Positions 46,679-63,224 of a stretch of DNA of 64,000 nucleotides are shown piece by piece. Both the position numbers and the translations under genes were made by a program. The stretch spans positions 67,778 to 131,777 of the forward strand of contig DATLVI010000013.1 of the NCBI GenBank assembly GCA_035577545.1, read 5' to 3'. How positions within the stretch are numbered: the first letter of the stretch is position 1; each line of letters begins with the position of its first letter. This DNA comes from Verrucomicrobiia bacterium. GTDB lineage: Bacteria > Verrucomicrobiota > Verrucomicrobiia > Palsa-1439. The notes under the pieces were generated by a model. It had not been told where the DNA came from. It did no database searches and saw only the letters and a list, made by a program, of their open reading frames with translations.

Positions 46679-48180
46679 AGGCGAAAGAGCGCCTGGAGTT
46701 GGTTGCGGAAACCAGCCGTATATTGCCGTTGCTCCTCGATGGCAAGCGGCGTGGTCCCCCGGGCTGCCAGCTTCCCCTCAGTTTCCAATTTGCGTTTTGC
46801 CAGCAACTCGCTGATTTCCTGCAACACCCGGGGTTGTTGCCGGAAGACCTCCGCCAGCATTGCGCGATCGAGTTCCGCGACTTCGCAATCGGCGGTGGCC
46901 GTAACGGTGGCCGACCGTTTCTCGCCGGTAAGCAATGACATCTCGCCAAAACAGGCGCCGGAATGGAGCGCGGCCAGGTGCGTGCGGGCGCCGTTGTTTG
47001 TGACCGACACATCCGCCGTGCCAGTCATCAACACAAACATCGAGTCTCCGTTCGCATCTTGTTGGAGCATTTTTTCACCACGTCCAAATCGGTGAATCCG
47101 CACGCCAGCCAGTAGCGTCTGCAGTTGCGGATCTTCCACGGAGCGGAACAGCGAATGTTGTCGGAGCGCGGTGCGCACCGCTTCGAGGTGCGGCTCGGTC
47201 GTTAGAGCGGGAGGCGCTTGCATGTAGATCGTGCGCGTGGGATACGGGATCTTGATGTGGTGGCGCTGCAACTCATACCAGATGTTGGTGCGCACGGCAT
47301 CTTCCACCTCGTTGTACACGGTGTGATCGTCCATCCAGTACCGGAGTTCATACACGTTGGCAAAATCTCCAAAGTTTTTGAGGTAGACCTGCGGAGGAGG
47401 ATTCGCGAGCACATGCTCGACGGTAGCGGCTGCATGCGCCAGAACGTCCTTTACGCGGTTGGGAGGCTCTGCCTGGTCAATTCCCAACTCCAACCGCATG
47501 GCGTGCTTGCGAACCGGGTAATAGAGATTGGCAATGGTCTGACGGGCAATCTGGCTGTTGGGCACGTCCAGCCACAAGTCGTCGTTCGTCCGCACGCGGG
47601 TGGATCGCCAGCTCATCTCCATGACTTCGACGTGCCGATGCTCAAAGAGCAGCCAATCCCCGACCTTGAATGGCTTCTCGAAATGGAGCACACAGCCCGC
47701 AATCACATTGGCCAGGAGATCCTGGGCCGCCAAACCAACCGCCAGCGCAAGAATGCCGGAGCCCGCGAGCAGGCCGGGGATTTGGATGTGAAAACCAACG
47801 CTGAGGATCAACAGAACGGCTGTGCTCAGAATCGCCAGTGCGACCACGTCGCGCACCACGCGAGGAACTACAATCTTGCGTTTCTGCTCGAAGTAGAGTT
47901 CCCACACCATCCGCCGGGTCAACGAAACCGCCAGCAGGGCAGACAGCAAAACCGTGGCGGCTCCGAGGGCGTCCCGCCACCACATGGTGGGCGCGGTGAG
48001 GCTCGTTGCGATATAGAGGGCCAACGCGCCACTGAACATTTCATAGAGCACACCCCAACGCATCCCCACACGCTGCTTCAACCACCGTCCCCCGGCCAGG
48101 AGCACAAGGTACGCCACCAGCGCGGTCACCGGCAGCAACACGCCTACTTCGCCAGCCGTTCTCCAATTCAAGACAGCCAT
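46675..48180 (-). CDS. Mechanosensitive channel (MscS family) fused to a C-terminal cyclic-nucleotide-binding domain (bCNG-type)
   Basis: Start at the internal Met MAVLNWRTAGE (~48180; the ORF upstream is Arg/Ser-rich junk). TM helices, then an MscS core (GDWLLFEHRHVEVMEMSWRSTRVRTNDDLWLDVPNS). C-terminal CNB domain (FGRGEKMLQQDANGDSMFVLMTG..FGEMSLLTGEKRSATVTA). Confidence 0.7.
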   Translation of the reverse strand: MAVLNWRTAGEVGVLLPVTALVAYLVLLAGGRWLKQRVGMRWGVLYEMFSGALALYIATSLTAPTMWWRDALGAATVLLSALLAVSLTRRMVWELYFEQKRKIVVPRVVRDVVALAILSTAVLLILSVGFHIQIPGLLAGSGILALAVGLAAQDLLANVIAGCVLHFEKPFKVGDWLLFEHRHVEVMEMSWRSTRVRTNDDLWLDVPNSQIARQTIANLYYPVRKHAMRLELGIDQAEPPNRVKDVLAHAAATVEHVLANPPPQVYLKNFGDFANVYELRYWMDDHTVYNEVEDAVRTNIWYELQRHHIKIPYPTRTIYMQAPPALTTEPHLEAVRTALRQHSLFRSVEDPQLQTLLAGVRIHRFGRGEKMLQQDANGDSMFVLMTGTADVSVTNNGARTHLAALHSGACFGEMSLLTGEKRSATVTATADCEVAELDRAMLAEVFRQQPRVLQEISELLAKRKLETEGKLAARGTTPLAIEEQRQYTAGFRNQLQALFRL

Positions 48181-48253: not shown

Positions 48254-50458
48254 ATGCGCGAGCGGGGGCTCGTGATGACAAAGTGCATTGGTGACGGACG
48301 ATGTCGATTATTAATCCGGTTGGTTGCCTTGCTTTGGCTGGGCACCGCATCGTTATTTGCGGATCCCGCGACCGCTGGCAACACCAATGGCCAGATTGCG
48401 GCCTTGATCAAGTTGTCCGCAGCCTGCCAATCGTCCGGACAGCATCCGCGCGCGGAACAGCTTCTCCAGGAAGCGGTCGATCTCGCCAAATCATCAGGCG
48501 ATCGCAATGCGTTGATTTTGGCGATGAGTAAACTGGGCGCCGCTTGCACGATGACGCGGCAGTTGAACCGCGCAGAGACATTGTTGCGCGAGAGCCTGGA
48601 GATGGCGCGTGCCGATGGAAACCTGCAAATGACAGGCGCCATCCTGAACGATCTCGGCAATGTGTTGGGATTGCGCCAGAAGTATGCGGAGGCACTCGAT
48701 GTATTTCAGCAAAGCGTTGCCGAGGCTCGCAAAGGCGGCAATAAACTGCTCATCGCCCAGGCCCTGTGCAACGCAGCCTCAACAGCCGCGCGGGCTGGCA
48801 TGATACAGCAAGTCGACACATTGAACGCAGAGGCGCTCGATCAGATCGCGCAACTCGACGCATCGCACGAGAAAGCATACTTATTCATCACCGCCGGTGA
48901 GACTGATGCTGCCCAACAGCATTCGCAGCGCGCGCAACAATCTTATCAACATGCGCTGGACGTTGCCGAAGCGATTGGCGACCACGGCGCTGCCAGTTAC
49001 GCTCTCGGGTATTCCGGCGAACTTTACGAGCGCGACAAGCAGCTTGATCAAGCATCGTCCTTTACCCGCCGGGCGATTTTTGAGGCGCAACAAGCCCGGA
49101 TGCCGGAAGCATTGTACCGCTGGGAATGGCAATCCGGCCGGCTCCTGAAAAGGCAAGGTGAGACGGAGCAAGCAATGGCAGCATACCGGCGTGCGATCCA
49201 AACCCTGCAACCGATTCGGCACGACATTTCTCTCGGCAATGGCAACGCGACGACCCACGTTTCGTTTCGCGAGGCGGAAGGACCATTGTACTTCGAAATG
49301 GCTGACCTGCTACTCCAACAAGCCGGTCATTCGAAAGATCCACAGCCGCTGCTGCTGGAAGCGCGTGATACGGTGGAGCAACTTAAGGCGGTTGAGCTGG
49401 AGGATTATTTTCAGGATGAGTGTGTCAATGTTGCGCGCGCACGGACCAGGTCACTCGAGGCCGTGGACGGCCACACGGCAATCGTGTACCTGATCCCGCT
49501 TGGCACGCGCACGGAAGTGTTGGTGGGCCTGGCATCCGGCCTGCACGACTTCACGGTGGACGTTGGAGTGGACACGCTGGCGGCGGAAGTCCGGGAGTTT
49601 CGGCGCAACCTGGAAACACGCACGTCATATGGCTACCTCGCTGAAGCGCGACAGCTTTACGACTGGATCATCCGCCCGATACACGGCCTATTGATTGAGA
49701 ACCGCATCGACACGCTGGTGTTCGTGCCGGACGGCGCGCTACGCACAATCCCATTCGCCACCTTGCATGATGGAAAGAAGTTTTTGATCGAAGAATACGC
49801 AGTAGCGGTGGCACCGGGTCTTTCGCTGATTGAACCGCGCCCGATCCAACGGGCGAACGCGCGTCTGCTATTGGGCGGATTATCGGCATCCGTGCAGGGG
49901 TATCCGTCCTTGAATTTTGTGCCTGCTGAACTGCATGATATCGAACCGATGTATCCCAGTGAGACGTTGTTGAACAAAGACTTCGTGTTGCCGTCGATCA
50001 CCGGGAAACTTACCAAGGAACAATACAGCATCGTCCACATTGCCTCGCATGGTCAGTTCAATAGCGATGCGCACAAAACGTTTGTACTGACCTACGATGG
50101 GAAATTGACATTGGATGATCTGGAAGCGTTGATTCGTCCCAGCCAGTATCGCGGCAAACCGGTGGAACTCCTGGTGTTGAGCGCGTGCCAGACCGCGTCC
50201 GGCGACGATCGCGCCGCGCTGGGGTTGGCCGGCGTGGCGATCAAGGCCGGCGCGCGCAGTGCGCTGGCCTCGCTGTGGTTCGTGAACGACCAATCTACCT
50301 CTGCATTGATTTCCGAATTCTATCACCAGTTGCGCGAATCGCCATCCGTCTCAAAAGCCCGGGCGTTGCAAGCGGCCCAAATCAAGATGCTGAACGACCC
50401 ACGCTACCGGCATCCGTGCTATTGGGCACCGTACTTGATCATCGGGAATTGGCTGTGA
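48254..50458 (+). CDS. TPR-repeat + CHAT-domain (caspase-like protease) protein, secreted or periplasmic
   Basis: 734 aa. N-terminal hydrophobic signal. TPR-like repeats (ALILAMSKLGAACTM.., ALDVFQQSVAEARK..). C-terminal CHAT domain with His/Cys dyad context IVHIASHGQF and LLVLSACQTASGDD. Confidence 0.7.
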   Translation: MRERGLVMTKCIGDGRCRLLIRLVALLWLGTASLFADPATAGNTNGQIAALIKLSAACQSSGQHPRAEQLLQEAVDLAKSSGDRNALILAMSKLGAACTMTRQLNRAETLLRESLEMARADGNLQMTGAILNDLGNVLGLRQKYAEALDVFQQSVAEARKGGNKLLIAQALCNAASTAARAGMIQQVDTLNAEALDQIAQLDASHEKAYLFITAGETDAAQQHSQRAQQSYQHALDVAEAIGDHGAASYALGYSGELYERDKQLDQASSFTRRAIFEAQQARMPEALYRWEWQSGRLLKRQGETEQAMAAYRRAIQTLQPIRHDISLGNGNATTHVSFREAEGPLYFEMADLLLQQAGHSKDPQPLLLEARDTVEQLKAVELEDYFQDECVNVARARTRSLEAVDGHTAIVYLIPLGTRTEVLVGLASGLHDFTVDVGVDTLAAEVREFRRNLETRTSYGYLAEARQLYDWIIRPIHGLLIENRIDTLVFVPDGALRTIPFATLHDGKKFLIEEYAVAVAPGLSLIEPRPIQRANARLLLGGLSASVQGYPSLNFVPAELHDIEPMYPSETLLNKDFVLPSITGKLTKEQYSIVHIASHGQFNSDAHKTFVLTYDGKLTLDDLEALIRPSQYRGKPVELLVLSACQTASGDDRAALGLAGVAIKAGARSALASLWFVNDQSTSALISEFYHQLRESPSVSKARALQAAQIKMLNDPRYRHPCYWAPYLIIGNWL

Positions 50459-52377
50459 AGTTGTCTCCGCGGTTGGTGGGTTTGTTGATCGTCCTCGCGG
50501 TGTTCTTCTCCGCACTTTTGGTCCGACGGCTGGGGTGGTTACAATTCCTCGAGTTTCGCGCCTACGATTTCTTCATCCAACAGCAACCGAAGGCCGTAAC
50601 AAGTGACCCGATCGTGTTGGTGGAGATGACCGAGAAGGACATTCAAAGCCCGACGCTGGATTATCCGATTACCGACGATAAGCTGGCGGAATTGCTGAGC
50701 ATTTTGGAGGCGCAACAACCCGCAGTGATCGGACTGGACATCTGGCGCGACATCCCGGTGCCGAAAAACGGCGTGCACTTTCGCCAGCTCAACGAGACGT
50801 TGCTCGCGCACACCAATATCGTTGCCATTTTCACCCTGGGAGGGATCGGGCCGCCGCAGGCGCTGGCAGCGAATCCCGAACGACTGGGGTTCAATGACAA
50901 TCTGCCCGTCGACGACCGGGTGGATAAAACGACACCGAAAGTCCGGCGCGGCCTGCTGATTGGCGATTCGAAATCCGGGCAGAGCTTCGATTCGATCGCG
51001 TTTCGTGTGGCAGAAGTCTATTTGGAGCGGCAGGGCATTGTGCCACGATTCGATCCTGCCGATCCTGACTCGTTTCAACTGGGCAAGACGCGACTGCGGG
51101 CATTCGAGGCAAACGACGGCGCGTACGTGGGCGCCGACGCTCGCGGCTGGCAAATACTGCTCGACTTCAAGTGTCCGGACGAGTTCGCCCGACATTCGGT
51201 CGGCGAGGCGCTCGCTGGCGGAATCCCACCTGGCAGCCTGCGCGGCAAAATTGTGTTGGTGGGGATGAATGCGCCAAGCGTCTCTGACGAGCGCGTCACG
51301 CCGATTCGTTCCAATCATCATGGTATCGAGGTGCAGGCGCAGATTATTCATCAATTGTTGCGCGCGGCACTCAACGGCGAGAGACCGCTCCGGTTCTGGA
51401 AGGACTGGGAAGAGGATGCCTGGATGTTGTTGTGGTGCCTGGTCGGCGGGGCGATCGGTTACTGGATCCGGTCTCCGTGGCGGTTCCTTGCGGCCATTGG
51501 GCTGGTACTGCTCGCGCTGGGCTGGATCGCGTGGCGATCATTTCTCGCGGGTTGGTGGATTCCGTTGATGGCCCCGGTGGCAGCCTGCCTGCCGGCAGCG
51601 GCATTGATGACGTCATACATTTCCTTTGAAGAACGAAAACAGCGCGGCCAACTCATGCAGTTGTTTTCCAATCAGGTGTCACCCGACATCGCGCAGGCGC
51701 TTTGGGAACAGCGGCATGAGTTCCTGGCCGGCAATCGCCCGCGTTCACAAAAGCTAATCGCTACCGTTCTCTTCACCGATCTCAAAGGCTTTTCGGGCAC
51801 CTCGGAAGGACTGGAGCCTGCGCAGTTAATGGACTGGCTTAATGAATACATGGAAGCGATGGCCAACGCCGTGATGGCTGAACAAGGCGTGGTCGAGAAA
51901 TACATCGGCGACTCGATCATGGCCGTTTTTGGCGTCCCGATCGCGCGCGTGTCGCAGGAGCAGATTACGCAGGACGCCCGCAACGCCATTTGCTGCGCCC
52001 TGGCCATGCGCAAAGAAATGGAGCGGCTCAATGCGGAGTGGAAACAGCGAAATATGCCGGTCTGTAGTATGCGCATCGGCATTCACACCGGGCCGCTGGT
52101 GGCCGGTAGCCTCGGCAGCGTCGAGCGACAGGAGTACACGGTCATCGGCGATGCGGTGAACACGGCATCACGGTTGGAAAGCTTCGATAAGGACACCGGC
52201 TCCAATGACAGCGTCTGCCGCATCCTCATCAGTGAAGCAACGAAACTGTTATTAGGTGAAGAGTTTGAGCTGAGCCCATTGGGTACAATGAGCTTGAAAA
52301 ACAAGAGTGAGAAAGTCATCATCCATCGCGTGGTTGGGCGAGCCAGCCGCGAACCCGGAGGTCAGCGTGAGAATTAA
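50455..52377 (+). CDS. CHASE2 extracytoplasmic sensor domain fused to a class III adenylate/guanylate cyclase
   Basis: GTG start overlaps the CHAT gene stop (GTGA). N-terminal TM + CHASE2 region, 3 TM helices, then a cyclase domain (ATVLFTDLKGFSGTSE, IGDSIMAVFG, IGIHTGPLVAGSLGS..YTVIGDAVNTASRLES). Confidence 0.7.
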   Translation: MKLSPRLVGLLIVLAVFFSALLVRRLGWLQFLEFRAYDFFIQQQPKAVTSDPIVLVEMTEKDIQSPTLDYPITDDKLAELLSILEAQQPAVIGLDIWRDIPVPKNGVHFRQLNETLLAHTNIVAIFTLGGIGPPQALAANPERLGFNDNLPVDDRVDKTTPKVRRGLLIGDSKSGQSFDSIAFRVAEVYLERQGIVPRFDPADPDSFQLGKTRLRAFEANDGAYVGADARGWQILLDFKCPDEFARHSVGEALAGGIPPGSLRGKIVLVGMNAPSVSDERVTPIRSNHHGIEVQAQIIHQLLRAALNGERPLRFWKDWEEDAWMLLWCLVGGAIGYWIRSPWRFLAAIGLVLLALGWIAWRSFLAGWWIPLMAPVAACLPAAALMTSYISFEERKQRGQLMQLFSNQVSPDIAQALWEQRHEFLAGNRPRSQKLIATVLFTDLKGFSGTSEGLEPAQLMDWLNEYMEAMANAVMAEQGVVEKYIGDSIMAVFGVPIARVSQEQITQDARNAICCALAMRKEMERLNAEWKQRNMPVCSMRIGIHTGPLVAGSLGSVERQEYTVIGDAVNTASRLESFDKDTGSNDSVCRILISEATKLLLGEEFELSPLGTMSLKNKSEKVIIHRVVGRASREPGGQREN

Positions 52378-53095
52378 TTTGTGGCGTTGTGGCGCGTTGC
52401 TTGTCGGTCTGTGCGTGATGCTACCGGTCGCGGCCCGGTCGGAGGACAAGCCGTCTCCGCCGGCCGGGGAAACTGTCCCACCGGTGAAGTTTCGACCGCC
52501 CTCGCGCGGCGCACCGGCCACGCGCCTGACCGGCGGATCGCGCGGCAGTGGGGACGCGACAATCACTTTGGACGTACTGGCTCCCGACGAGACCGGCTTG
52601 ACAACTCAGGAACAACCCTCGCTGTTCTGGTATCAATCCAAACCCGCCGCGGCAAAGTTCGAGTTGACGCTGTTGGAAGAGAACAAGCTCAAGCCCTTAC
52701 TCCAGGTCAAATTCGAGCGTTCCAGCAAGGCCGGCATTCAACGAATCAAACTCTCCGAGCACGGCGTGAAGCTTGCGCCCAATGTTGAATACCAGTGGGT
52801 CGTCGCGCTGGTCACCGATCCTGACAACCGTTCGAGCGACTTGGTGGCCAGTGGAGCGATCAAACGCATCGAGCCGTCCGCCGAGTTGCGAGCCAGGATT
52901 GCCGGGGCTGGCCCGGCGGCCCTGCCCGGTATCTACGCCGAGGCCGGTATCTGGCATGACGCGCTGGAAACTCTTTCGGATATGGTCGATGCCCGGCCCA
53001 ACGACAAAGCATTGCGCCAGGCGCGCGCCGATTTATTGACCCAAGTGGGCCTGAAGGCCGCCGCAAGTTCCGAAGGCGCGCTCGCCAGGAAATAA
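52367..53095 (+). CDS. Secreted DUF928-like protein
   Basis: Probable GTG start overlapping the cyclase stop. Signal peptide LVGLCVMLPVAARS. The DUF928 assignment rests on my recollection of the family (PSLFWY.. region) and its known co-occurrence with CHAT/CHASE2/TPS genes in cyanobacteria; it needs an HMM check. Confidence 0.4.
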   Translation: MRINLWRCGALLVGLCVMLPVAARSEDKPSPPAGETVPPVKFRPPSRGAPATRLTGGSRGSGDATITLDVLAPDETGLTTQEQPSLFWYQSKPAAAKFELTLLEENKLKPLLQVKFERSSKAGIQRIKLSEHGVKLAPNVEYQWVVALVTDPDNRSSDLVASGAIKRIEPSAELRARIAGAGPAALPGIYAEAGIWHDALETLSDMVDARPNDKALRQARADLLTQVGLKAAASSEGALARK

Positions 53096-54700
53096 TCAGA
53101 ACGCCACGAGGTTCGCCTGAAAATGCAGCCCGAGGTCCTGGGCGTTGTCATTCGGGATGGAGATGCGGTTCAGCCGGTAGCCCCAGTAAAGCTGGGCGTT
53201 GAAGCGCTTGTTGGGAGTAATCAACACTCCCAAGCCGACACTGTAGATCGTGCTTGGACTTTGTGAATCATTGACGTTCCACGCACCGCCGTAATCAAAG
53301 AAGGGCGCCAACTGGACGATCCCGTTGCCAGCTTTGTCGAAAAGCACCGGCACCCGAAACTCCGCCGACGACACCAGGCCGCGGTCGCGCACCAGTTGAT
53401 TTTCCACATAGCCCCGCACGGTGTCCGCCCCACCAACGCTGATTTGTTCGAGCGCCAGCAATTTGTCGTCGGTCCATTGCCCGGCGACGCGCAAGATAAG
53501 TTGGTTCGGCGTGTTGAAGAGGCGTTGGATGTACTGCGCCTGACCCAGCCAGGCAAAAAACTTCCCGTTCGGATCGCCAGCCACCCTGTCGTCCGTTGCG
53601 CCAAGCACATCCAAACCAACATTGAAGGTGGATCGCAACGCGAGCACATGATTCTGGCCGCGGTCGATGAACTCTTGCGACAATCCCAAAACCGCTGCTG
53701 TCATCTGGCCGTTCGTAGCTCCCGGCGAGATATCGAACGGCTGGCCGAAGAGCGTGGAATTGTTCTGACGCCGGTCGAATGCGACCGATAGCGCCACTTC
53801 ACGATTCGCCGTCTGATACACCGGTTGGCGCAACGTGACGCCCAAGTCAACGGTTTCGCTACTGATGTTCAGTGTAGTGAACGGATTTTCGACGATGCTG
53901 GTGTCCTGCCGGCTGGCGCGGACGCCGAGAGTGGTGTTGTAACGGTTCAGTGGCAACGCATAGTTGCCGCCGATATTGTGCCACCCGGAAAGTCCCCAGC
54001 CATCATTCTCGCCGGCATTCGCGATTCCATACGTCACATCCAGCGGGTCGCTGTGTCCGGTCAGATTCAGATCTGCCGCCAGTAGAGAGATCTCTTCCGC
54101 GCCGACGCTGGGCGGCCGGTGATTGTCGATCTGGAGGCCGACCCGAAACGGTTGCTGATCCACAACGCGTAAATCCAGAATACTCTGGCCGGGAGCGGTG
54201 CCCGGCTCCAATTCGGCGTTGATCTGTTTGATATTTGGATTCTGCCGGAGAACTTGCAAACCCTCTTTCAGCTTGTTCATGTCGAGCGGCGGGCCGCTCC
54301 GAAGCTGTAATCGGCTGGTGATGTAGTCGTCGCGCAACCATTTATTTCCGTGCAACTCAATCCTGGATAAAATGCCCTCGACGATGCGAATCGTAATGAC
54401 ACCGTTTTCGGGGGTTTGATCCGGGATGAGGGCACCGGAGTTGAGATACCCGTGGTTGATGTAGTAGACAGTGACGGCACGACGCGCGTCTTCCAGTTCT
54501 TCGGTGGTGATCTCACGGTTCGCATAGGGCGCGGTGATTTTCGCCAGGACTTCCGACGAAAAGGCGGTATTACCCTCAAATCGAAATCCATGGACGAACA
54601 GCCGCGCGCTAGTGGACAGCCTCTGCGCACCGGCGGTTTGCGCAAGTAATACCAGTCCAAATAACGCCAGGACGTGGCGGACTCTCCTACTCGCCATCAT
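53096..54700 (-). CDS. TpsB (ShlB/FhaC/HecB family) two-partner-secretion outer-membrane transporter
   Basis: Start at MMASRRVRHVLALFGLVLLAQTAGA (signal). POTRA-like N-terminal region (FRFEGNTAFSSEVL), then a beta-barrel ending in aromatic-rich ..FQANLVAF. Confidence 0.75.
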   Translation of the reverse strand: MMASRRVRHVLALFGLVLLAQTAGAQRLSTSARLFVHGFRFEGNTAFSSEVLAKITAPYANREITTEELEDARRAVTVYYINHGYLNSGALIPDQTPENGVITIRIVEGILSRIELHGNKWLRDDYITSRLQLRSGPPLDMNKLKEGLQVLRQNPNIKQINAELEPGTAPGQSILDLRVVDQQPFRVGLQIDNHRPPSVGAEEISLLAADLNLTGHSDPLDVTYGIANAGENDGWGLSGWHNIGGNYALPLNRYNTTLGVRASRQDTSIVENPFTTLNISSETVDLGVTLRQPVYQTANREVALSVAFDRRQNNSTLFGQPFDISPGATNGQMTAAVLGLSQEFIDRGQNHVLALRSTFNVGLDVLGATDDRVAGDPNGKFFAWLGQAQYIQRLFNTPNQLILRVAGQWTDDKLLALEQISVGGADTVRGYVENQLVRDRGLVSSAEFRVPVLFDKAGNGIVQLAPFFDYGGAWNVNDSQSPSTIYSVGLGVLITPNKRFNAQLYWGYRLNRISIPNDNAQDLGLHFQANLVAF

Positions 54701-57131
54701 CCGCACCCATCGGCACTGAACTTGGCACGAACCCGCCTGGCTCGATGGGCAATCCTCCGGGCCCAAGCACGATGAAACTGCTGACATTACCGGCCAATCG
54801 CACTCCGCAATCGGGACGCAACAAGGATTCCGCGTCCAGAAGATCCGCCGGCAAGGCCACGAGGCTTCCGCTTAGATCCACATTCGGGGCGGTAACGACC
54901 ACAGTGCCGGGAATCCCGGACGGCGTCGATACGTCAAACGGACTTTCGGAGGCGAAGAAGAAGTCAGAGTTGACCGTGACCTTGCCCCCATTGCCCTGGA
55001 CATCCACCTTGGCGGTAATTGGGCTCTCATTCAATATTACGAAGGTCGGATCGAACGTGATATTCCCACCATTACCCTGATGCGCGTTGGCGCTGAGGGG
55101 ACTGTGTAACAAATAGATGCGGCGTCCAGCCGTCAATTCGATGTTGCCGCCATTCAGCGCGGCTTCGGCAGTGATCTGGCTGTGCTTGAGTTGAATGTCC
55201 CTGCCGGCCATCACGGAGATATCGCCGCCGTCGTTGTTCGCCGCCGAAACCTGCAGCGCACTGTGATCGGTCATTGTCAACGAGCCGTCCACCTGCAATG
55301 AGACTCCACCGGCCGCTCCGTCTGCCTCGCCGGCCGCTTTTATTGTGGAACTGCCCGCCAGCGTCACGTTCCCGGCTTGAATCTCGACGTTGCCGCTCGG
55401 ACCGGCGCCGGAGCTGTCGGTAAAAATCGAGCTCATGTTCCGCAGTTCGAGCATGCCGGCGGAGATGTGAATGTCACCGCCGGGCGCTGGCGCGTCGGAG
55501 CTGGTGGTGACTGCCTGGATGAACGATGAGTCGAGTAGAATGGAGTTGGCCGTGATTTCGACACTGCCACCCTTCCCAGAACCAAAAGTGGCCGCCGCTA
55601 CAGTCCCAAAAGCGGACATGTTGACAGACTTGGCGGTGATGCCGATGAAACCCGCATCCCCAGAGCCAAACGTGGCCGCGAGGAGCGTGGCACCGTTAAG
55701 TATTTCGAGAGAATCCGTCTGGATAATTATATCGCCGGCGTTACCGCCGCCATTGATCTGCTGACTGTTCGCAGTGATCTGCGTGGGCGTGGTGAGCATC
55801 GCGTCAAGTCGCACGGACGAAGCCGTGATGTCGATGCGCCCGGCATTTCCGGCGCCGAAGGTAGCGGAAGAGATTTGGGCACTGTTTACCAATTCGAGGC
55901 TGCCGGCTTGAATCGTGATGTCGCCGCCCTTGCCAGCACCACCGCCAAGAAGTGGATCCCCGGTTGCGGCGGAGATTTGCGTCGTCGGGTTAAAATTATT
56001 GTCCGTCAAGCCGCCGCCATCCAACCGGATCGAGCCGGCCGTGATGCTGATATTTCCGCCCGCGCCAAGGCCCATGGTCGACAGGCTGTCGATTTGGCCA
56101 CCATTGACGAGATTCAAATCGTTGACAACGGAGATGTCGATTCCCTGACCGTCGCCCGCGCCGGTGGTATTGGCCTGGATAAAGGAACCGTCCACCATCA
56201 GGCCACCGCCGCGGATGACAATCCGGCCGCCACCGTCACCATTCGCGTCGAGTTGCGCACCGTTTAGCAAACTGATCTGGCCTTGTTGCGGAAACGCCGC
56301 GTTGAATGCCGCGACGCTCAGTGTCGTCGGATCCACAGGCACTTCCCCGGCGGATTGGACGCTGACCATGTTGATTTGCCCGGCAGGCGCCTGCACCAAA
56401 CCGCCATCGACGGAAATGTCACCGCCGACGAGCGAGATTGATTTGCCGGCTGGCACAGCAAGGACACCCTGCTGCACCGCAATACTGCCGGGACTTCCTC
56501 CGAGAAATCCAAAAGCGCTAACCGGAGCCGAACTCAAAAGGGAATCGTCCGCACCCACCGCGGCCACGAATCGCGCACCATCGGCTAATTTCAGATAATC
56601 GGCGGTGCTGGCGGCGAAGGAACCGCTGACGTCGATCCTGGCGTTGGGACCGAAGATGATGCCCTTGGGATTGATAAAGAAAACGTTGGCTCCTGAGATC
56701 GTGGAGCGGATTAGTCCATCAATCGAAGAGGGACTGCCACCGGTGACTCGGGATAAAATGTTCTGGATCGTGTTCGGGCCAGAAAAGGTCGCGATGTCCC
56801 CGCTGGACAAGTCAAACTGTGAGAAGCTGAAGAAAAGATTGTGCCCGACTGTTTTGCCGTCGCCGGAGGTGATGTTGAAAGCCGGCCCGGAGAGCGATTG
56901 GCCGGTTTGACCCAACGAGTGATCGAATGTGACCTGGCCGGCCTCAGACGAAAGTCCCCCCGAGCCTGCCATTAGACAGGCTATCGCAAAAGCGCGAATG
57001 GTCTTTGCCAATTCCAAGTCGCTATCGGACTTTTTCTCACACCCGGCAGTTCGGTCAGGGTTTGAGATCGATGTAAACGTAGTGCTGGCTGCCGTCAGAC
57101 AAAGTGGCAATGATCTTCCAAGTGCCCGCAC
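54687..57131 (-). CDS. TpsA exoprotein with N-terminal hemagglutination-activity (TPS) domain and beta-helix repeats
   Basis: 814 aa. TPS domain motifs NITSGDGKTVGHNLFFSFSQFDLSSGDIATFSGP and NILSRVTGGSPSSIDG, then G/N/T-rich beta-helical repeats. Lies immediately upstream of tpsB on the same strand, overlapping it by ~14 nt. Confidence 0.7.
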   Translation of the reverse strand: MRALGRSLPLCLTAASTTFTSISNPDRTAGCEKKSDSDLELAKTIRAFAIACLMAGSGGLSSEAGQVTFDHSLGQTGQSLSGPAFNITSGDGKTVGHNLFFSFSQFDLSSGDIATFSGPNTIQNILSRVTGGSPSSIDGLIRSTISGANVFFINPKGIIFGPNARIDVSGSFAASTADYLKLADGARFVAAVGADDSLLSSAPVSAFGFLGGSPGSIAVQQGVLAVPAGKSISLVGGDISVDGGLVQAPAGQINMVSVQSAGEVPVDPTTLSVAAFNAAFPQQGQISLLNGAQLDANGDGGGRIVIRGGGLMVDGSFIQANTTGAGDGQGIDISVVNDLNLVNGGQIDSLSTMGLGAGGNISITAGSIRLDGGGLTDNNFNPTTQISAATGDPLLGGGAGKGGDITIQAGSLELVNSAQISSATFGAGNAGRIDITASSVRLDAMLTTPTQITANSQQINGGGNAGDIIIQTDSLEILNGATLLAATFGSGDAGFIGITAKSVNMSAFGTVAAATFGSGKGGSVEITANSILLDSSFIQAVTTSSDAPAPGGDIHISAGMLELRNMSSIFTDSSGAGPSGNVEIQAGNVTLAGSSTIKAAGEADGAAGGVSLQVDGSLTMTDHSALQVSAANNDGGDISVMAGRDIQLKHSQITAEAALNGGNIELTAGRRIYLLHSPLSANAHQGNGGNITFDPTFVILNESPITAKVDVQGNGGKVTVNSDFFFASESPFDVSTPSGIPGTVVVTAPNVDLSGSLVALPADLLDAESLLRPDCGVRLAGNVSSFIVLGPGGLPIEPGGFVPSSVPMGADDGE

Positions 57132-58203
57132 TCAAACCTTTCGTGGCAAGGTTGAAATGCCACGTACCAGAACCATCCGGTTGGAACAGATTGCCAGTGG
57201 TGGCACCACCCGTAGGCGACGCGTCGACGGCTGATTCCCCGCCTACCGTGCCATCACACTTGGACAACTGAATCGTGTGACTGCCAGTCAGGACAGGCGA
57301 CCCATCGCAGTTCAGAAGAGTCATCTTAATCGGGATGGTACTGCCCAGCTTGAACCCTCGTACGGCCGAAGCGCAGGTGCCGCCAGTGACATCCCCGCCG
57401 CCGATGGGAGGCAGGAAACCAGTGAATGACAGCGGACACGGAAGCGAGACGGCAATTCCGTCCGTGACCATATAAACCAAATTGGGGTCATTGGTTGCGC
57501 AGAAACTGTAATTGATCACTTCATCAAAGTTCGTTGGGCATGGCCCCTCGCAGCATGTAGGGCATTCGGGGATGAAAACGTAGGCACGGACCGGGAAAGG
57601 AAAGTCTGTCGGCAATTGCACGGCACCGGGCAGGGAACCTACGTCTCCGGTGAAGTTCGTAGGAAGCGCAGCATCGAACTCATAGAATTTGATCTGTTGT
57701 GCCGCTCCGGCGTCGGATCCCGACCAGTGCCAGGAGAATGAATATAGGGCTTGGCCGTCGGAGCACCCATTGGTCTCGATGGTAGACGAAAGGACTTCCA
57801 GAGTCGTGGATGACACCCGCGACGTCGCGGTCACGTAACCTGTCAATTCGCTGTTATCGGTCTTGTCACCATTGCTTGCCGTGGTGGTGGACTTCCAAAC
57901 GTAGCCCGGTTGCCCCAGGATGCGGGCCAGTGTTTTAGTGGACGCCCCGCTGGGAAGGGGGCCGCCAGCGACAAAACCCGGGGTGTTAGTCATGGCCGCA
58001 CTCGGGCTGGTCATGAGGGCTGTGGCTACCGTGTTAGATTTGAGCGTTGATGAGGTGACATTGACGGAAGCCTTTCCAAAGCCCGAGCCGTTCATCGAAC
58101 CCGTCCAGCCCGCCAGCGCCGATGGCCCATGGCCAATGACTACTCCAAGTGCTACCGCGCATCCGAACCGCATATAATGACCAATGCCCTGCTTCATATT
58201 CAT
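57055..58203 (-). CDS. Secreted Cys-rich hypothetical protein upstream of tpsA
   Basis: Start at MNMKQGIGHYMRFGCAVALGVVIGHGPSALA. Ser/Thr-rich N-terminal half. C-terminal half has CPTCCEGPCP and 10+ Cys. Confidence 0.4.
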   Translation of the reverse strand: MNMKQGIGHYMRFGCAVALGVVIGHGPSALAGWTGSMNGSGFGKASVNVTSSTLKSNTVATALMTSPSAAMTNTPGFVAGGPLPSGASTKTLARILGQPGYVWKSTTTASNGDKTDNSELTGYVTATSRVSSTTLEVLSSTIETNGCSDGQALYSFSWHWSGSDAGAAQQIKFYEFDAALPTNFTGDVGSLPGAVQLPTDFPFPVRAYVFIPECPTCCEGPCPTNFDEVINYSFCATNDPNLVYMVTDGIAVSLPCPLSFTGFLPPIGGGDVTGGTCASAVRGFKLGSTIPIKMTLLNCDGSPVLTGSHTIQLSKCDGTVGGESAVDASPTGGATTGNLFQPDGSGTWHFNLATKGLSAGTWKIIATLSDGSQHYVYIDLKP

Positions 58204-58671
58204 CGTTCTCCCTTTGCTACTCCCAAGGTAACCGGAACACACGTCCTACCGAATTCGTCACTCTGAGTTATACAACCCGCGACCCTTTTCTCACTTGGGT
58301 TTGGTGGATTTGGCGGCCCATCGCAGGTATACAGAAAACCAACCACCCTGTCAAGCTTGCAGGATAAGCCCTCCAGCAACAAGTGAAGTTTGACAGAGCT
58401 TCCTTCGTGTCCCGTTCTGCAGCGTAGCAGTAAGCTTACAGGCGTCTGCGGTCAGACCGGTGTGATTGGGTTGTTCTGCTGTTACATGAGCAGGATGTCC
58501 AAAACACGAGAGATCATGCCGGCTGTGTAGTGATCGGGTTGGTTTAGCTGAGCAGGCTTCTGCATAACTGCTTTCAGAGGCGCGAAGGTGGACGATGGTC
58601 CGCGATTACGGCACGCTTGGCAGGTGTGCCACGGCGTGGTAGAAGTTCAGCTTCAATCGCCGTCGCCCGGT

Positions 58672-59454
58672 ATGCGTGATTCCGTCACATTTCTCGGTAC
58701 ATCAGATGGTTTGCCGTCTCCCGGCCGGCATCATGCGTCCTTGCTGCTAGAATTTGCCGCGCGGACCATCCTCCTGGACTGTGGCGAACCATGCAGCCAT
58801 ACTCTCAAGAGGATGGGGAAGGATTTCAGCGCCATTGACATGGTCGTCATCAGCCACACCCACGCGGACCACATCGGTGGCTTCCTAATGCTCATGCAGT
58901 CCATGTCGCTGGAAGGGCGACGACGGCCGCTGACCGTTTGGATGCCCGGGCATGCGATACGATTGATGCGGGAGTGCTTGGATGCTTGTTACCTGTTTGA
59001 ACCACAGCTGGGTTTTTCGGTGAAATGGATCGCGTTTGATAAACATTCGGCGATGCGATGCGGGCCGATACAACTGCGTGCGTTTCGGACCACGCACCTC
59101 GATAATCTGCGCAAACAGTACGGCGTGCCGCGTCCGGCAGTACAGTTCGACGCGTTTTCCCTGCTGGCGACAGGAGGCGGCAAGCGGCTGGCATACTCGG
59201 GCGATATGGGTATGCCCGAGGATTTGCGGCCACTGTGCACGAAATCTCTCGACTTACTGGTGGTCGAGTTGGCACACTTTCAACCGAGGGAGCTGGTTGA
59301 ATTCCTGCAACCGAAGGATGTGCGGCGCGTAGCAATTACGCACATTGGGCGACCAGCGTGGGCACGACTCGCCGAGGTCAAGGCCCTGGCGGGGAACGTA
59401 TTGGGTCCACGAAAAACGCTGTTTGCGATGGATGGAGACGTCGTAAAATTCTAA
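58672..59454 (+). CDS. MBL-fold metallo-hydrolase (HxHxDH; RNase Z / class II cNMP phosphodiesterase-like)
   Basis: Start at the internal Met MRDSVTFLGTSDG... Motif VISHTHADHIGG. Confidence 0.55.
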   Translation: MRDSVTFLGTSDGLPSPGRHHASLLLEFAARTILLDCGEPCSHTLKRMGKDFSAIDMVVISHTHADHIGGFLMLMQSMSLEGRRRPLTVWMPGHAIRLMRECLDACYLFEPQLGFSVKWIAFDKHSAMRCGPIQLRAFRTTHLDNLRKQYGVPRPAVQFDAFSLLATGGGKRLAYSGDMGMPEDLRPLCTKSLDLLVVELAHFQPRELVEFLQPKDVRRVAITHIGRPAWARLAEVKALAGNVLGPRKTLFAMDGDVVKF

Positions 59455-59471
59455 TTTGGAGGAGGCGAGAC

Positions 59472-59978
59472 ATGGCTGCCAACCTGGTTCCTGATAGCGG
59501 GGCGCAATTCACATCGAGCGAATTGCGTCGCATCAAGCTTTTTGCGGACATGACAGATGAGGACATTTCCATTCTTAACGCAGTTATTGAGCCGGTCACC
59601 TGTCGCCCCAACCAGATCATCGTGAGCGCTGGTGATGTCGGTGACTGCATGTTTCTGGTCATGCAAGGTGAATTCCGTGTTAGCCTTGTTTCACAGGGGC
59701 GGGAAGCATTACTGGCCAAGCTTGAGACGGGCGATTTCTTCGGCGAACTGTGCCTGCTCGACGAGAACAATCGGTCGGCGGACGTGGTGGCGACGGTGCC
59801 GGGACGGCTGTTGCGGTTTTCGCGCGCGGCGTTTCAGCAGTTGGTGGAGACACGCCCGCAGGTGGCGGCGCGTTTGATGATGGGAATCTTGCGGACGGTC
59901 GGTAGCCGCTTGCGGAAGATGGACAAGCAACACTCGGACTCGATGTTGCTCAGTCGCTCGTGGAAAACGATCCGTTGA
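59472..59978 (+). CDS. Standalone cyclic-nucleotide-binding (CAP effector-type) domain protein
   Basis: Start at MAANLV with RBS GGAGGAGG upstream. CNB signature GDFFGELCLL..RSADVVA. No obvious DNA-binding HTH follows. Confidence 0.6.
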   Translation: MAANLVPDSGAQFTSSELRRIKLFADMTDEDISILNAVIEPVTCRPNQIIVSAGDVGDCMFLVMQGEFRVSLVSQGREALLAKLETGDFFGELCLLDENNRSADVVATVPGRLLRFSRAAFQQLVETRPQVAARLMMGILRTVGSRLRKMDKQHSDSMLLSRSWKTIR

Positions 59979-60433: not shown

Positions 60434-60492
60434 GATAGGACTCCTCAGTCATGAAAGTGAAACCCGGCGCCAATCGAAAAGAGGAGGAGCAA

Positions 60493-61599
60493 ATGACACA
60501 GGTAAAGTCCATCGAGCAAAACCAGGAACAAACGATCAACCGTCCGCAGGTGACCACGCTCCGGGCGCTGGCCGTGTGTCTGGCCATTTCGGTTGCCGCA
60601 GCGGCCACGAGCAAAGCTATGAACCTGAAGTCGGGCGACATTGTCATGGCGGATTCTTCGTCCGCCGTCCTGCGAGTCGACCCCAAAACGGGAGCGGCCA
60701 CGGTCATTTCCTCAGGCGGAAATCTTGTGCGCCCCTTCGGAGTCGTCGTTGAGGCGGACAGTAATATCCTCGTGGCCGACTCCGGCGCTCTGGCGATCAT
60801 CCGCATTGATTCGCAGACCGGTTCGAATCGCGTCGTTTCCTCAGGAGGCGTTCTCGGAACGCCTTACGGGATTACTCTTGATCATCAGGGAAACATCCTC
60901 GTCGCGAATGCCCAGGCCGTTGTCCGGGTCGATCCTCAGAGCGGCGCGCAAACCGTGGTGTCCGCAAACGGGATGTTCCGAGCACCGGTCGGCGTCGCGG
61001 TTGCTGGCGATGGCGGCATTTTCGTGGCGGACATGACCGGGACCATCGTCCGCGTCGACCCGGCGAGCGGAACGCAAACCAATATCAGCGCAGGGACATA
61101 CCTGGTAAATCCAGTGGGGATCACGATTGACGACGACGGCAGTCTCCTTGTAGCCGACGAAGGTTCCCACGCTCTCGTCCGCCTGGATGCCGCCAGCGGA
61201 GCACAACAAGTGGTCTCCGTCGGAAATGATCTGGTAACGCCGGTCAGCGTCGTAATCGGGGCCCAGCACGACGTCCTCGTGGGCGACCCGGATGCATTCA
61301 GCTTGAATGGAGCCGTGATTCAGATTGACCCCGCGTCGGACACCCAGACCAACGTATACATGGGCAGCGGGGAATTGGTCAACCCCCGCGGCATCGCGCT
61401 GGTGCCAACGGTCCGTGGCCGGATCGACCAACTCTGCCCCTGCCAGGGACCCTCTTCCGGCACGATGTGGAAGAATCACGGAAAGTACGTCGGCGCCGTG
61501 TCCAAAGTAGCCCGCCAGTTTGTGAAGTCGGGATCGATCACGAAGGACGAGCAGCGCACCATCATCCACGAAGCCCTGTTGTCCCAATGCGGCCGATAA
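60493..61599 (+). CDS. Secreted six-bladed beta-propeller (NHL/YVTN-like repeat) protein
   Basis: Start at MTQVKS with RBS GAGGAGG. Signal/TM LRALAVCLAISVAAAA. Six ~43-aa repeats of the form V.RVDP.SG....V.S.G.L..P.GV. Confidence 0.55.
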   Translation: MTQVKSIEQNQEQTINRPQVTTLRALAVCLAISVAAAATSKAMNLKSGDIVMADSSSAVLRVDPKTGAATVISSGGNLVRPFGVVVEADSNILVADSGALAIIRIDSQTGSNRVVSSGGVLGTPYGITLDHQGNILVANAQAVVRVDPQSGAQTVVSANGMFRAPVGVAVAGDGGIFVADMTGTIVRVDPASGTQTNISAGTYLVNPVGITIDDDGSLLVADEGSHALVRLDAASGAQQVVSVGNDLVTPVSVVIGAQHDVLVGDPDAFSLNGAVIQIDPASDTQTNVYMGSGELVNPRGIALVPTVRGRIDQLCPCQGPSSGTMWKNHGKYVGAVSKVARQFVKSGSITKDEQRTIIHEALLSQCGR

Positions 61600-61691: not shown

Positions 61692-63224
61692 TCAAGTCAC
61701 GCCGTAGCGCTTCATCTTTTTGATCAGCCCCTGGCGGCTGAGCCCGAGGGCGCGAGCCGCCTGCTGTTGATTGTGATGACTGGCATTCAATGCTTCCCGG
61801 ATCAAACGCGTCTCGAGTTGCGCCACGATTTCCTTAAGCGACCGGCCGGAACTGTCCCGGATGATTCCGCCGGCGGTGCCGCTGGTTCGGACCGCTTCGG
61901 ACATGTCATCCTCCGTGATGGTAGAGCGGCGAGTGGCTATCACGGCCCGCTTGATTTCATTCTGTAATTCTCGAATATTCCCGGGCCAGGGATGGCTCCT
62001 CAGGCACCGAGACGCACCCGGGGACAGCTTCATGGGTTCCTTCCTTATTTCGCGACAAAATCTCGAAAGAAAGTAATTCGCCAGCAGGGTAATATCTTCC
62101 GGTATCTCCCGCAGAGGGGGTAGATGAATGTGGATGACATTGAGCCGATAATACAGATCTTCGCGAAACGCGCGTTGTTTTATCTCAACCCCGAGGTCCT
62201 TGTTGGTTGCGGCGAGCACACGGGCATCAACGGGGATCGGTTTCTTGCCTCCGACACGCTCGACTATTTTTTCCTGTAACACCCGCAATATCTTGGCTTG
62301 CGCCACCAAATTTAGATCGCCGATTTCGTCCAGCAACAATGTCCCGCCGTTGGCTGCCTCAAACTTTCCAATGCGTGCCTCGACGCCCGTGGCCACCCCT
62401 TTCTCAATCCCAAACAACTCACTTTCCACCAAGCTGTCCGGCAGCGCGGCGCAGTTCAGAGAAATCAACGGGCGGCGGGCGCGGGAGCTGTTCAGATGAA
62501 TCGCGCGGGCCACCATTTCCTTGCCGGTACCGCTTTCGCCGGTGATCAGGACGTTGACATCGATATCGCTGATCTGCTGGATCCGCCGTACAACCAGCTG
62601 GATGGGATCGCTGGTGCCGATTATCTGTTGCGTGGCGGATTGGCCTTCCATCTCTTTCCGCAAGTGCGATGTGTCTTCCCGCAATTGGTCCCGTTGTTCC
62701 TGCAGCTGCCTGACGAACTGCGCCGTTTCCAGCGCGTTGCCCGCTTGCGAAGCCAAAGTTTGCAGGAGAATTTCATCTTCGGTGGTAAATCCGCCCCTTT
62801 TCTTGTTCAGCGCCTGCACGGCGCCGATGATTTCTCCCTTGTCGTTGCGTAACGGCATGGCCAGGACGTTGCGCGTGCGATAGCCCGTGCGTGCATCGAC
62901 ACCCGGGTAAAAGCGTGGATCACGGCGGGCGTCATCCACGTTGATAGTTTGGCCTGAAAGGGCCGCAGCGCCCGCAAGACCCAGGCGGGCATCCAATCGA
63001 ATCCGCTTTTCACCGACCGCAGCCAGTGACCACAATTCGCTCTTCTCGCGATCCAGGAGAAAAATGCTTGCCCGGTCTGCTCCCAGGAGTTTGGTAGCCT
63101 CAGCGGCGATGAGATCAAAGAGGACTCCGAGATCATGTTGCGCGCCGATTTTGCGGCAACTCGCTAGAGCTTCTAGTAGTCGATCGGCAGGCGGGTTCTG
63201 CTCGACTGGAACGGGGGTAGACAT
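61692..63224 (-). CDS. Sigma-54-dependent transcriptional activator with N-terminal GAF domain and C-terminal Fis-type HTH
   Basis: 510 aa. GAF region, then an AAA+ sigma-54 interaction domain (ITGESGTGKE, ELFGIEKGVATGV, LLLDEIGDL) and a C-terminal HTH QAARALGLSRQGLIKKMKRYG. Confidence 0.8.
   Translation of the reverse strand: MSTPVPVEQNPPADRLLEALASCRKIGAQHDLGVLFDLIAAEATKLLGADRASIFLLDREKSELWSLAAVGEKRIRLDARLGLAGAAALSGQTINVDDARRDPRFYPGVDARTGYRTRNVLAMPLRNDKGEIIGAVQALNKKRGGFTTEDEILLQTLASQAGNALETAQFVRQLQEQRDQLREDTSHLRKEMEGQSATQQIIGTSDPIQLVVRRIQQISDIDVNVLITGESGTGKEMVARAIHLNSSRARRPLISLNCAALPDSLVESELFGIEKGVATGVEARIGKFEAANGGTLLLDEIGDLNLVAQAKILRVLQEKIVERVGGKKPIPVDARVLAATNKDLGVEIKQRAFREDLYYRLNVIHIHLPPLREIPEDITLLANYFLSRFCREIRKEPMKLSPGASRCLRSHPWPGNIRELQNEIKRAVIATRRSTITEDDMSEAVRTSGTAGGIIRDSSGRSLKEIVAQLETRLIREALNASHHNQQQAARALGLSRQGLIKKMKRYGVT

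Follow-up and report, generated by a model that had tools for sequence, protein, structure and literature searches.

A conserved two-partner secretion family tied to envelope proteolysis and CHASE-type receptors suggests an input route for CHASE2

Two-partner secretion (TPS, type Vb) systems, in which an exoprotein (TpsA) is paired with an outer-membrane transporter (TpsB), are associated with adhesion, cytolysis, contact-dependent inhibition (CDI) and haem capture. One such pair is encoded in a stretch of 64,000 nucleotides (nt) from a Verrucomicrobiia bacterium (GenBank assembly GCA_035577545.1, contig DATLVI010000013.1, positions 67,778 to 131,777 of the forward strand), hereafter called the window. 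Here tpsA and tpsB follow a gene for another secreted protein, designated X, the three co-directional genes occupying positions 53096-58203 of the minus strand. The locus represents a conserved TPS family with links to envelope proteolysis and to CHASE-type receptors, and it suggests a route by which CHASE2 sensor domains may receive their input. For this locus and its relatives, domain identities, export signals, an intact catalytic dyad, co-location and co-inheritance across phyla, the swapping of receptors and outputs, and one fusion of TpsA with a TPR-CHAT protein were computed.

The described type Vb systems, such as FhaB/FhaC, ShlA/ShlB, HMW1, EtpA/EtpB and HxuA/HxuB, resemble the pair in the window in their signal peptides, the NPxG-type TPS domain, the POTRA domains and ShlB barrel of the transporter, and the adjacency or overlap of the two genes. 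The TpsA described here differs in being short (~760-780 aa), conserved throughout and equipped with a family-specific C-terminal motif; it also occurs mostly together with CHAT, DUF928 and CHASE-type receptors, whereas none of the systems described in the literature found has such neighbours. It shows no similarity to the ShlA/HpmA haemolysins or FHA-type adhesins beyond the TPS domain. CDI systems (CdiB/CdiA/CdiI) share the TpsB family and a beta-helical TpsA, but in the window TpsA lacks a pretoxin or toxin C-terminus and an immunity gene is missing; the order of the genes also differs, and the TpsA C-terminus is conserved rather than polymorphic. The order tpsA-then-tpsB, which an earlier interpretation made from the letters of the window (the sequence-only reading) had singled out, is not unusual in itself, being also that of cdrAB and hmw1AB. 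The CdrA/CdrB pair of P. aeruginosa, which operates with LapG and LapD, shares with the window both this order and a link to a nucleotide second messenger. CdrA is held by a periplasmic C-terminal element and freed by the cysteine protease LapG; the fate of this TpsA would likewise be set by the action of a periplasmic cysteine protease at a Cys-holding C-terminal retention element. In the window, by contrast, the protease is a caspase-fold TPR-CHAT protein and not of the LapG type, the receptor makes a cyclic nucleotide monophosphate (cNMP) or, in variants, is a kinase rather than a c-di-GMP binder, and the sequence relationship to CdrA/CdrB ends with the TPS and TpsB domains.

CHASE2 ranks among the most widespread extracytoplasmic sensor domains in bacteria, where it is found in cyclases, kinases, GGDEF proteins and caspase-like proteins. 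As late as 2023 its ligands were described as unknown (PMC10581220). The sole functional clue to its input in the literature found comes from Sinorhizobium meliloti, where the CHASE2 cyclases CyaK, CyaD1 and CyaD2 depend on NsrA, a barrel protein of the outer membrane, for their response to a protein signal from outside (PMC13001267, PMC7529298). As at the locus in the window, an outer-membrane beta-barrel is combined with a CHASE2 cyclase, and the cAMP output acts on a cNMP-binding regulator, but the NsrA system has neither an exoprotein nor a protease. Homology between NsrA and TpsB was considered and not borne out: in a tblastn search with TpsB of the window, Sinorhizobium appeared neither among the ten most frequent genera nor in the 60 matches listed. 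The S. meliloti CHASE2-type cyclase match (L086 8388-9275, pSymB record) adjoins a FecR-domain gene and not DUF928, CHAT or TPS genes, which suggests that rhizobial CHASE2 uses a different family of periplasmic partners. Because of this FecR neighbour and the absence of Sinorhizobium from the listed TpsB matches, the S. meliloti system is regarded as an analogue and not as the same module. A second precedent is MtxA of Magnetospirillum gryphiswaldense (PDB 4Z29), a secreted protein with Ig-like and TPR parts, whose gene is directly followed by a CHASE2 adenylate cyclase gene (PMC4439547). Among open-access papers and preprints, none was found that connects DUF928, CHASE2 or CHAT domains with two-partner secretion or haemagglutinins, nor any that describes a module of a TPS pair, TPR-CHAT, DUF928 and a CHASE-type receptor.

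The transporter gene tpsB (53096-54700, minus strand) encodes a protein of 534 aa with a signal peptide, POTRA domains (POTRA_2, E 1.6e-20), a ShlB-type barrel (ShlB, E 4.7e-33) and the VRGY loop motif (GGADTVRGY). Its full-length phmmer matches include CdiB (6wim, E 4e-17, the best solved match) and FhaC (E 1.4e-9). The exoprotein gene tpsA (54687-57017, minus strand) encodes ~776 aa from the TTG at 57017, comprising a signal peptide, a TPS domain (PF05860, E 3.9e-42, aa 66-304 of the 814-aa open reading frame (ORF); TIGR01901 (NPxG), E 8e-22), a Gly-periodic beta-helix region and the C-terminal motif; NF012204 remains below its cut-off (29 vs 60 bits). Judged by their domains and adjacency, tpsA and tpsB are a genuine type Vb pair, and TpsB-dependent export of TpsA is predicted. 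The maximal tpsA ORF (54687-57131, minus strand, GTG start, 814 aa) has an N-terminal extension without a signal peptide; TpsA started from TTG 57017 or 57011 has a normal one, with cleavage between LAKTIRAFAIACLMAGSGGLSSEA and GQ, and the NCBI gene call, for a 100% identical protein from a Verrucomicrobiae MAG (metagenome-assembled genome), begins at ATG 56972 and yields 761 aa (P0001). The sequence-only reading had the ORFs of X and tpsA overlapping, which is an artefact of the longest ORF: only the extension from GTG 57131 reaches into X, the later starts do not, and the genes therefore lie ~37-82 nt apart. No terminator-like site was seen in this gap, in promoter and terminator scans that were uninformative, finding fewer sites than in shuffled sequence. 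The overlap of ~14 nt reported between tpsA and tpsB is confirmed, the tpsB ATG (54700) lying 14 nt inside tpsA (stop 54687-54689), and in homologous loci the overlap is 14-17 nt.

The TpsA family is conserved from end to end. Twenty homologues share 47-66% identity over their full length, and between lineages the proteins are 50-65% identical. Invariant Gly residues recur every ~28 residues at TpsA positions 403-716 in these 20 homologues, as expected for the stacked coils of a putative beta-helix. A profile of the 20 members matches solved TpsA chains (EtpA, HxuA) only at positions 62-146, the ~80-residue TPS core, and past this core the family appears, by such comparison, unlike known exoproteins or adhesins. 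The last ~75 residues (54690-54920, minus strand), containing LVALPADLLDAESLLRPDCGVRLAGNVSSFIVLGPGGLPIEPGGFVPS, form a motif with the consensus LVxLPxNLLDAExQLRPDCGVRLxGNISSFIVLGRGGLPxxPGGFVPS, which is among the best-conserved parts outside the TPS domain. Nearly invariant in it are L771, C775, R778, L779, S784, F786 and G790-P795 (20 homologues), and C775 (~54807 in the window) is the sole Cys of mature TpsA. The motif recurs in Verrucomicrobiota, Planctomycetota, Alphaproteobacteria and Betaproteobacteria; TpsA of Nitrospira has an equivalent tail followed by an extension, which in several lineages ends with a second Cys. In a MAG of Syntrophorhabdaceae (L051, 9647-16753), a single ORF of 2369 aa joins TpsA and its C-terminal motif, through a linker of 25 residues, to TPR-CHAT. 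The junction contains neither a signal peptide nor masked bases; exoprotein and protease are naturally fused in this ORF. An apparent fusion of TPR-CHAT with CHASE2 at another locus (L010) was discarded as an artefact of masked bases (a run of N).

Three plus-strand genes, convergent with tpsB, encode TPR-CHAT (48254-50458), the CHASE2-cyclase (50455-52377; a class III adenylate/guanylate cyclase of 640 aa from GTG 50455) and the DUF928 protein (52367-53095; 242 aa). The cyclase start overlaps the CHAT stop as GTGA; the DUF928 gene overlaps the cyclase stop by 11 nt, and its own stop abuts that of tpsB. TPR-CHAT has a signal peptide, TPR repeats (TPR_12, E 1.6e-18) and a caspase-fold CHAT protease domain (PF12770, E 9.7e-59). 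A TPR array joined to a caspase-fold CHAT domain with a His/Cys dyad is also found in Csx29, of the type III-E CRISPR Craspase, and in separase, where it serves the regulated cleavage of a specific partner; the protein in the window differs in its predicted export to the envelope and has no CRISPR or RNA-guided component. The catalytic His (HIASHG) and Cys (LSAC) are invariant in 47/47 aligned homologues, and an N-terminal segment resembling a signal peptide is present in nearly all homologues of TPR-CHAT. This suggests that it is an exported caspase-fold protease, predicted to be active from its intact dyad. A second Cys, in the motif AELEDYFxDxCV, is 98% conserved, and an intermolecular disulfide between it and C775 of TpsA is conceivable.

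The CHASE2-cyclase unites CHASE2 (PF05226, E 5.4e-50) with a cyclase domain (Guanylate_cyc PF00211, E 9.4e-26). Its hydrophobic segments (aa 5-23, 344-362 and 369-387) predict a topology in which a first transmembrane helix precedes a periplasmic CHASE2 domain, further transmembrane helices and a cytoplasmic cyclase. The DUF928 protein (PF06051, E 4.9e-41) carries a signal peptide, and in its N-terminal part the linear motif RPPxxGAPxVRVxGGSRGxGD is conserved and modelled at low confidence. In the AlphaFold2 (AF2) model (pLDDT 74), strands at 51-167 and helices at 172-241 form an Ig-like sandwich followed by TPR-like helices, and the top Foldseek match is the C-terminal domain of MtxA (4Z29, E 1.4e-5, probability 1.0, TM 0.40-0.52). 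The likeness is structural, without a match at sequence level: a DUF928 profile search of PDB sequences gave nothing significant and no MtxA match, and MtxA (313 aa) has an extra N-terminal region. Its modelled fold, secretion and adjacency to a CHASE2 cyclase together mark the DUF928 protein as a probable MtxA-like Ig+TPR protein. The family is large, with 5056 clusters at 50% identity in a large protein library. Of two library proteins noted (P0337, P0402), one of 932 aa has DUF928 at the end of a chain that first passes through CHASE2, a cyclase and a hydrophobic segment, and the other combines PG_binding_1 with DUF928. About 10 of 150 listed DUF928 proteins are tandem duplications of ~450-500 aa.

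Genes for cNMP-binding proteins stand on both sides of these genes and of the TPS operon. Divergent from the CHAT gene lies a gene for an MscS-type channel with a C-terminal cNMP-binding domain (46675-48180, minus strand; MS_channel_2nd, MS_channel_3rd, cNMP_binding E 1.1e-17), a candidate effector of the cyclase. On the other side, divergent from X, are genes for an MBL-fold hydrolase (58588-59454, plus strand; Lactamase_B_2 E 6e-20, with a weak, sub-threshold Pfam match to Apyc1, an anti-Pycsar nuclease, E 3e-5) and a stand-alone cNMP-binding protein (59358-59978, plus strand; cNMP_binding E 4.8e-22), the end of the first overlapping the start of the second. Both probably belong to the same cNMP island, in which the hydrolase may be a phosphodiesterase that degrades the cyclic nucleotide. 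The cNMP/CHAT surroundings pointed out in the sequence-only reading were thereby confirmed by Pfam, and this context proves central.

Conservation of the module was assessed by a scan of one genome per species, which yielded 360 related stretches; 79 loci were retained from these. Both the window proteins and profiles made from the initial matches served as queries against the six-frame ORFs of the 79 loci, and neighbourhoods were counted in the 30 of the 79 loci that have at least 7 kb on both flanks. CHAT is present in 24 of these 30 well-flanked loci, DUF928 in 23 and the CHASE2-cyclase in 17, while TpsB, CHAT and DUF928 occur together in 21. The loci span Verrucomicrobiota, Nitrospira, Desulfobacterota, Alphaproteobacteria, Betaproteobacteria, Gammaproteobacteria and Cyanobacteria. 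Three distant TpsA homologues (50-55% identity) are accompanied by the same set of an X-like gene, tpsA, tpsB, a convergent DUF928 gene, the CHASE2-cyclase and TPR-CHAT, with cNMP-binding genes nearby. The MscS-cNMP fusion also adjoins the module at one further locus (L001); other loci have a large cNMP-binding ORF there, judged by its cNMP domain alone. On a Pseudanabaena plasmid, the annotation reads ShlB, CHASE2, a filamentous-haemagglutinin-N-terminal protein, CHAT and DUF928 in succession, and genes for TpsA, CHASE2 and DUF928 are grouped on plasmid alpha of Nostoc PCC 7120. Pairwise identities of TpsA, TpsB, TPR, CHAT and DUF928 are correlated across 34 loci (r 0.69-0.92), which fits inheritance as a unit. 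CHAT, the CHASE2-cyclase and DUF928, which the sequence-only reading had left in the background, are the conserved partners of the TPS pair, and X is a clade-restricted addition. The arrangement, regarded at first as atypical, is so by comparison with characterised TPS systems, but among the genomes scanned it is common and conserved.

The receptor is the part of the module that varies. In verrucomicrobial variants without CHASE2, a CHASE8-HAMP histidine kinase adjoins the CHAT gene, and in a Nitrospira variant a HAMP-GAF histidine kinase replaces CHASE2; these CHASE8-HAMP or HAMP-GAF kinases stand beside CHAT or DUF928 genes (L024 17296-18984, L032 17562-19364 and L058 18570-20975). The cyanobacterial CHASE2 partners have either a kinase output or an N-terminal CHAT domain. 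The latter is seen in Nostoc PCC 7120 (pCC7120alpha, L084 10840-13185) and Stigonema (L073 6213-8639), where an N-terminal CHAT domain without a signal peptide is followed by a transmembrane helix and CHASE2, and by this layout it looks like a cytoplasmic protease output. The constancy of the TpsA/TpsB/TPR-CHAT/DUF928 set beside varying sensor-output proteins argues that the constant set supplies the input of the transducer.

These data bear directly on the simplest alternative, namely that the TPS locus is of an ordinary kind (adhesin, haemolysin or CDI) and just happens to adjoin unrelated signalling genes. Such a locus would have the canonical TPS domain and TpsB seen here, and TPS loci often lie in variable regions; the synteny with CHAT and DUF928, kept across at least five phyla, contradicts a chance juxtaposition. 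The TPS domain is the only Pfam domain found in TpsA, so no toxin or pretoxin domain, PT-VENN included, is present, and among the ORFs of the locus no small one that could encode a CdiI-like immunity protein lies between tpsA and tpsB or downstream. A CDI or toxin function was rejected on these grounds together with the conserved C-terminus, and the alternative as a whole is very improbable, given also that likeness to solved TpsA proteins ends after the ~80 residues of the TPS core. The sequence-only reading had been right about the TPS pair, the shortness of its TpsA and the lack of a toxin end. The comparison with known exoproteins that it called for shows this TpsA to be unlike known adhesins past the TPS domain.

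The interpretation favoured here, with a probability of roughly one half, is that tpsA-tpsB serves at the outer membrane as one arm of a conserved module for envelope signalling that drives cNMP synthesis. TpsA would be exported by the Sec pathway, threaded through TpsB and displayed with its beta-helix on the cell surface. Its Pro/Gly-rich C-terminal motif would be the last part to leave the periplasm and would there be bound, and possibly cut, by the exported TPR-CHAT cysteine protease. As an MtxA-like Ig+TPR adaptor, DUF928 would then relay the state of the TpsA/CHAT complex to CHASE2 on the periplasmic side of the cyclase in the inner membrane. The cAMP or cGMP produced would act on the neighbouring MscS-type channel and the stand-alone cNMP-binding protein, with the MBL hydrolase perhaps removing the nucleotide. 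A more specific proposal, that the module is a new outer-membrane-to-cytoplasm route in which TpsA is the surface sensor, TPR-CHAT reads or cuts its tail and DUF928 delivers the signal to CHASE2 or CHASE8, is possible but should be taken as tentative.

If this proposal is true, the missing input of CHASE2 would be supplied in thousands of bacteria, cyanobacteria included. Signal input would join the roles known for type Vb secretion, and CHAT proteases would gain a periplasmic role. In many phyla the module links CHASE2, and sometimes CHASE8, to a dedicated secretion pair, to a caspase-fold protease with an export signal and to DUF928, an orphan family. The question of CHASE2 input becomes experimentally tractable, as the module is carried by Nostoc PCC 7120 (plasmid alpha), Pseudanabaena (ABRG5-3), Sulfuricella and Rhodoferax.

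Several observations weigh against the signalling interpretation. Its support consists of gene neighbourhood and domain content, from which we infer every functional statement, including which way the signal flows, what the protease acts on, and what DUF928 and X do. The mirror-tree correlations (r 0.69-0.92) ignore species phylogeny. In six of the 30 well-flanked loci, neither CHAT nor DUF928 occurs in the vicinity of the related TpsA, and tandem TpsA genes of Chthoniobacteraceae keep the C-terminal motif with no CHAT within 10 kb. The fusion of TpsA with CHAT is known from one MAG only. TpsA of the window reads GPGGLP where most homologues read GRGGLP, and a simple model of cleavage after Arg therefore fails. 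Deletion of mtxA, moreover, gave no phenotype (PMC4439547).

The chief rival is a regulated surface adhesin of the CdrA-CdrB/LapG kind, in which TpsA would be a fibre of the surface or matrix, held in TpsB by its C-terminal motif until CHAT frees it, and the CHASE2 cyclase would be a co-regulated monitor of the surface instead of the recipient of a signal borne by TpsA. Much of the module can be read in this way: TpsA has a beta-helix and a C-terminal element with one conserved Cys, an exported cysteine protease with an intact dyad is encoded alongside, the TpsA-CHAT fusion sets the protease beside the TpsA tail, and the retention of CdrA and its release by LapG provide a precedent. The receptors of the module speak against it, since as cyclases or histidine kinases they produce signals, unlike LapD, which is a receptor for a second messenger, and they differ from variant to variant beside TPS, CHAT and DUF928 parts that are kept. 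A TpsA that is 50-65% identical over its full length between lineages would also be unusually conserved for an adhesin facing varied surfaces, and a Pfam search of the neighbouring genes found no domains of a LapG-type protease or a LapD-type receptor at the locus. The adhesin explanation is therefore considered doubtful, although it ranks first among the alternatives to envelope signalling.

Cyclic nucleotide synthesis next to cNMP-binding proteins also recalls bacterial defence, and the module could be a sensor of envelope breach or of invaders, with TpsA as a trip-wire or decoy and CHAT proteolysis leading through cNMP to growth arrest by the cNMP-gated MscS-type channel. In PADLOC, the cyclase matches the PycC model (E 3.9e-30) and the cNMP-binding domain the PycTIR model (E 3.5e-16), both at the level of domains only, and the nearby MBL hydrolase has its weak Apyc1-like match. 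CHAT proteases are known as defence effectors, as in Craspase, and the cyanobacterial partners of the module appear to have cytoplasmic CHAT outputs. Pycsar itself is a two-gene unit of a cytoplasmic pyrimidine cyclase and a cNMP-binding effector, whereas the cyclase in the window is a CHASE2 transmembrane receptor, and TpsA, TpsB, DUF928 and X match no PADLOC model; PADLOC did not support assignment to a defence system, its matches being to generic domains. Base composition is even throughout the region, the island is preceded by housekeeping genes, conservation is high among the module proteins, which are not diversifying, and the histidine-kinase variants point to ordinary gene regulation. 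A defence function is accordingly held to be unlikely, and more so than a regulated adhesin.

Gene X (57055-58203, minus strand), the secreted protein gene already placed upstream of tpsA on the same strand by the sequence-only reading, encodes 382 aa with a signal peptide cleaved between SALA and GWTGS, an N-terminal beta-sandwich, a variable middle part containing Cys residues and a C-terminal PxKF domain. The last is the ~113-aa C-terminal domain of NCBIfam NF038114, matched at aa 262-381 (E 8.8e-14, 51.8 bits, cut-off 35), and the NCBI name of the identical protein is 'PxKF domain-containing protein'; no Pfam match was found in X. Modelled with AF2 (pLDDT 82), the protein consists of beta structure throughout, arranged as three sandwich domains, and the best Foldseek matches of the model in the PDB are macroglobulin and Ig-like domains, a generic similarity. 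Homologues share the N-terminal domain (mature end GWTGSMNG) and the PxKF domain, and their middle parts vary and may hold HYR/Ig-like domains.

The Cys cluster that had drawn attention to X is present as the string ECPTCCEGPCP, but it lies in a variable loop that differs or is absent in homologues, and CPTCCEGPCP as a functional metal or redox site is unsupported. A lipoprotein nature was likewise rejected: the RFGC segment is no lipobox, its Cys is not conserved, and cleavage falls between ALA and GW. Nor is PxKF a tag specific to TPS, as three other PxKF proteins (one each of the FG-GAP, beta-propeller and beta-helix type) are encoded away from TPS genes. At 26 loci, which all fall in the verrucomicrobial clade nearest to the window, tpsA is immediately preceded by a same-strand gene with a PxKF domain, and no X-type gene was present in the CHASE8 variants examined or found in any locus from other phyla. 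The operon thus has a genuine third gene in X, as the sequence-only reading had proposed, but X is confined to this clade and is not the key partner. Most likely, X would serve as a surface partner or specificity subunit of TpsA.

The island is flanked on the far side of the stand-alone cNMP-binding gene by genes for a secreted NHL-repeat beta-propeller protein (60451-61599, plus strand) and a GAF-domain sigma-54 activator (61692-63224, minus strand). Modules of the Verrucomicrobia type also appear on MAG contigs labelled Bifidobacteriaceae, Bifidobacterium or Akkermansia muciniphila (L010, L014, L029, L020 and L031), which are probably mis-binned or mislabelled. In some genomes, two to three tandem tpsA genes precede one tpsB, or two modules lie ~20 kb apart (L038/L039 on CAWEWF010000008.1, L046, L047 and L068).

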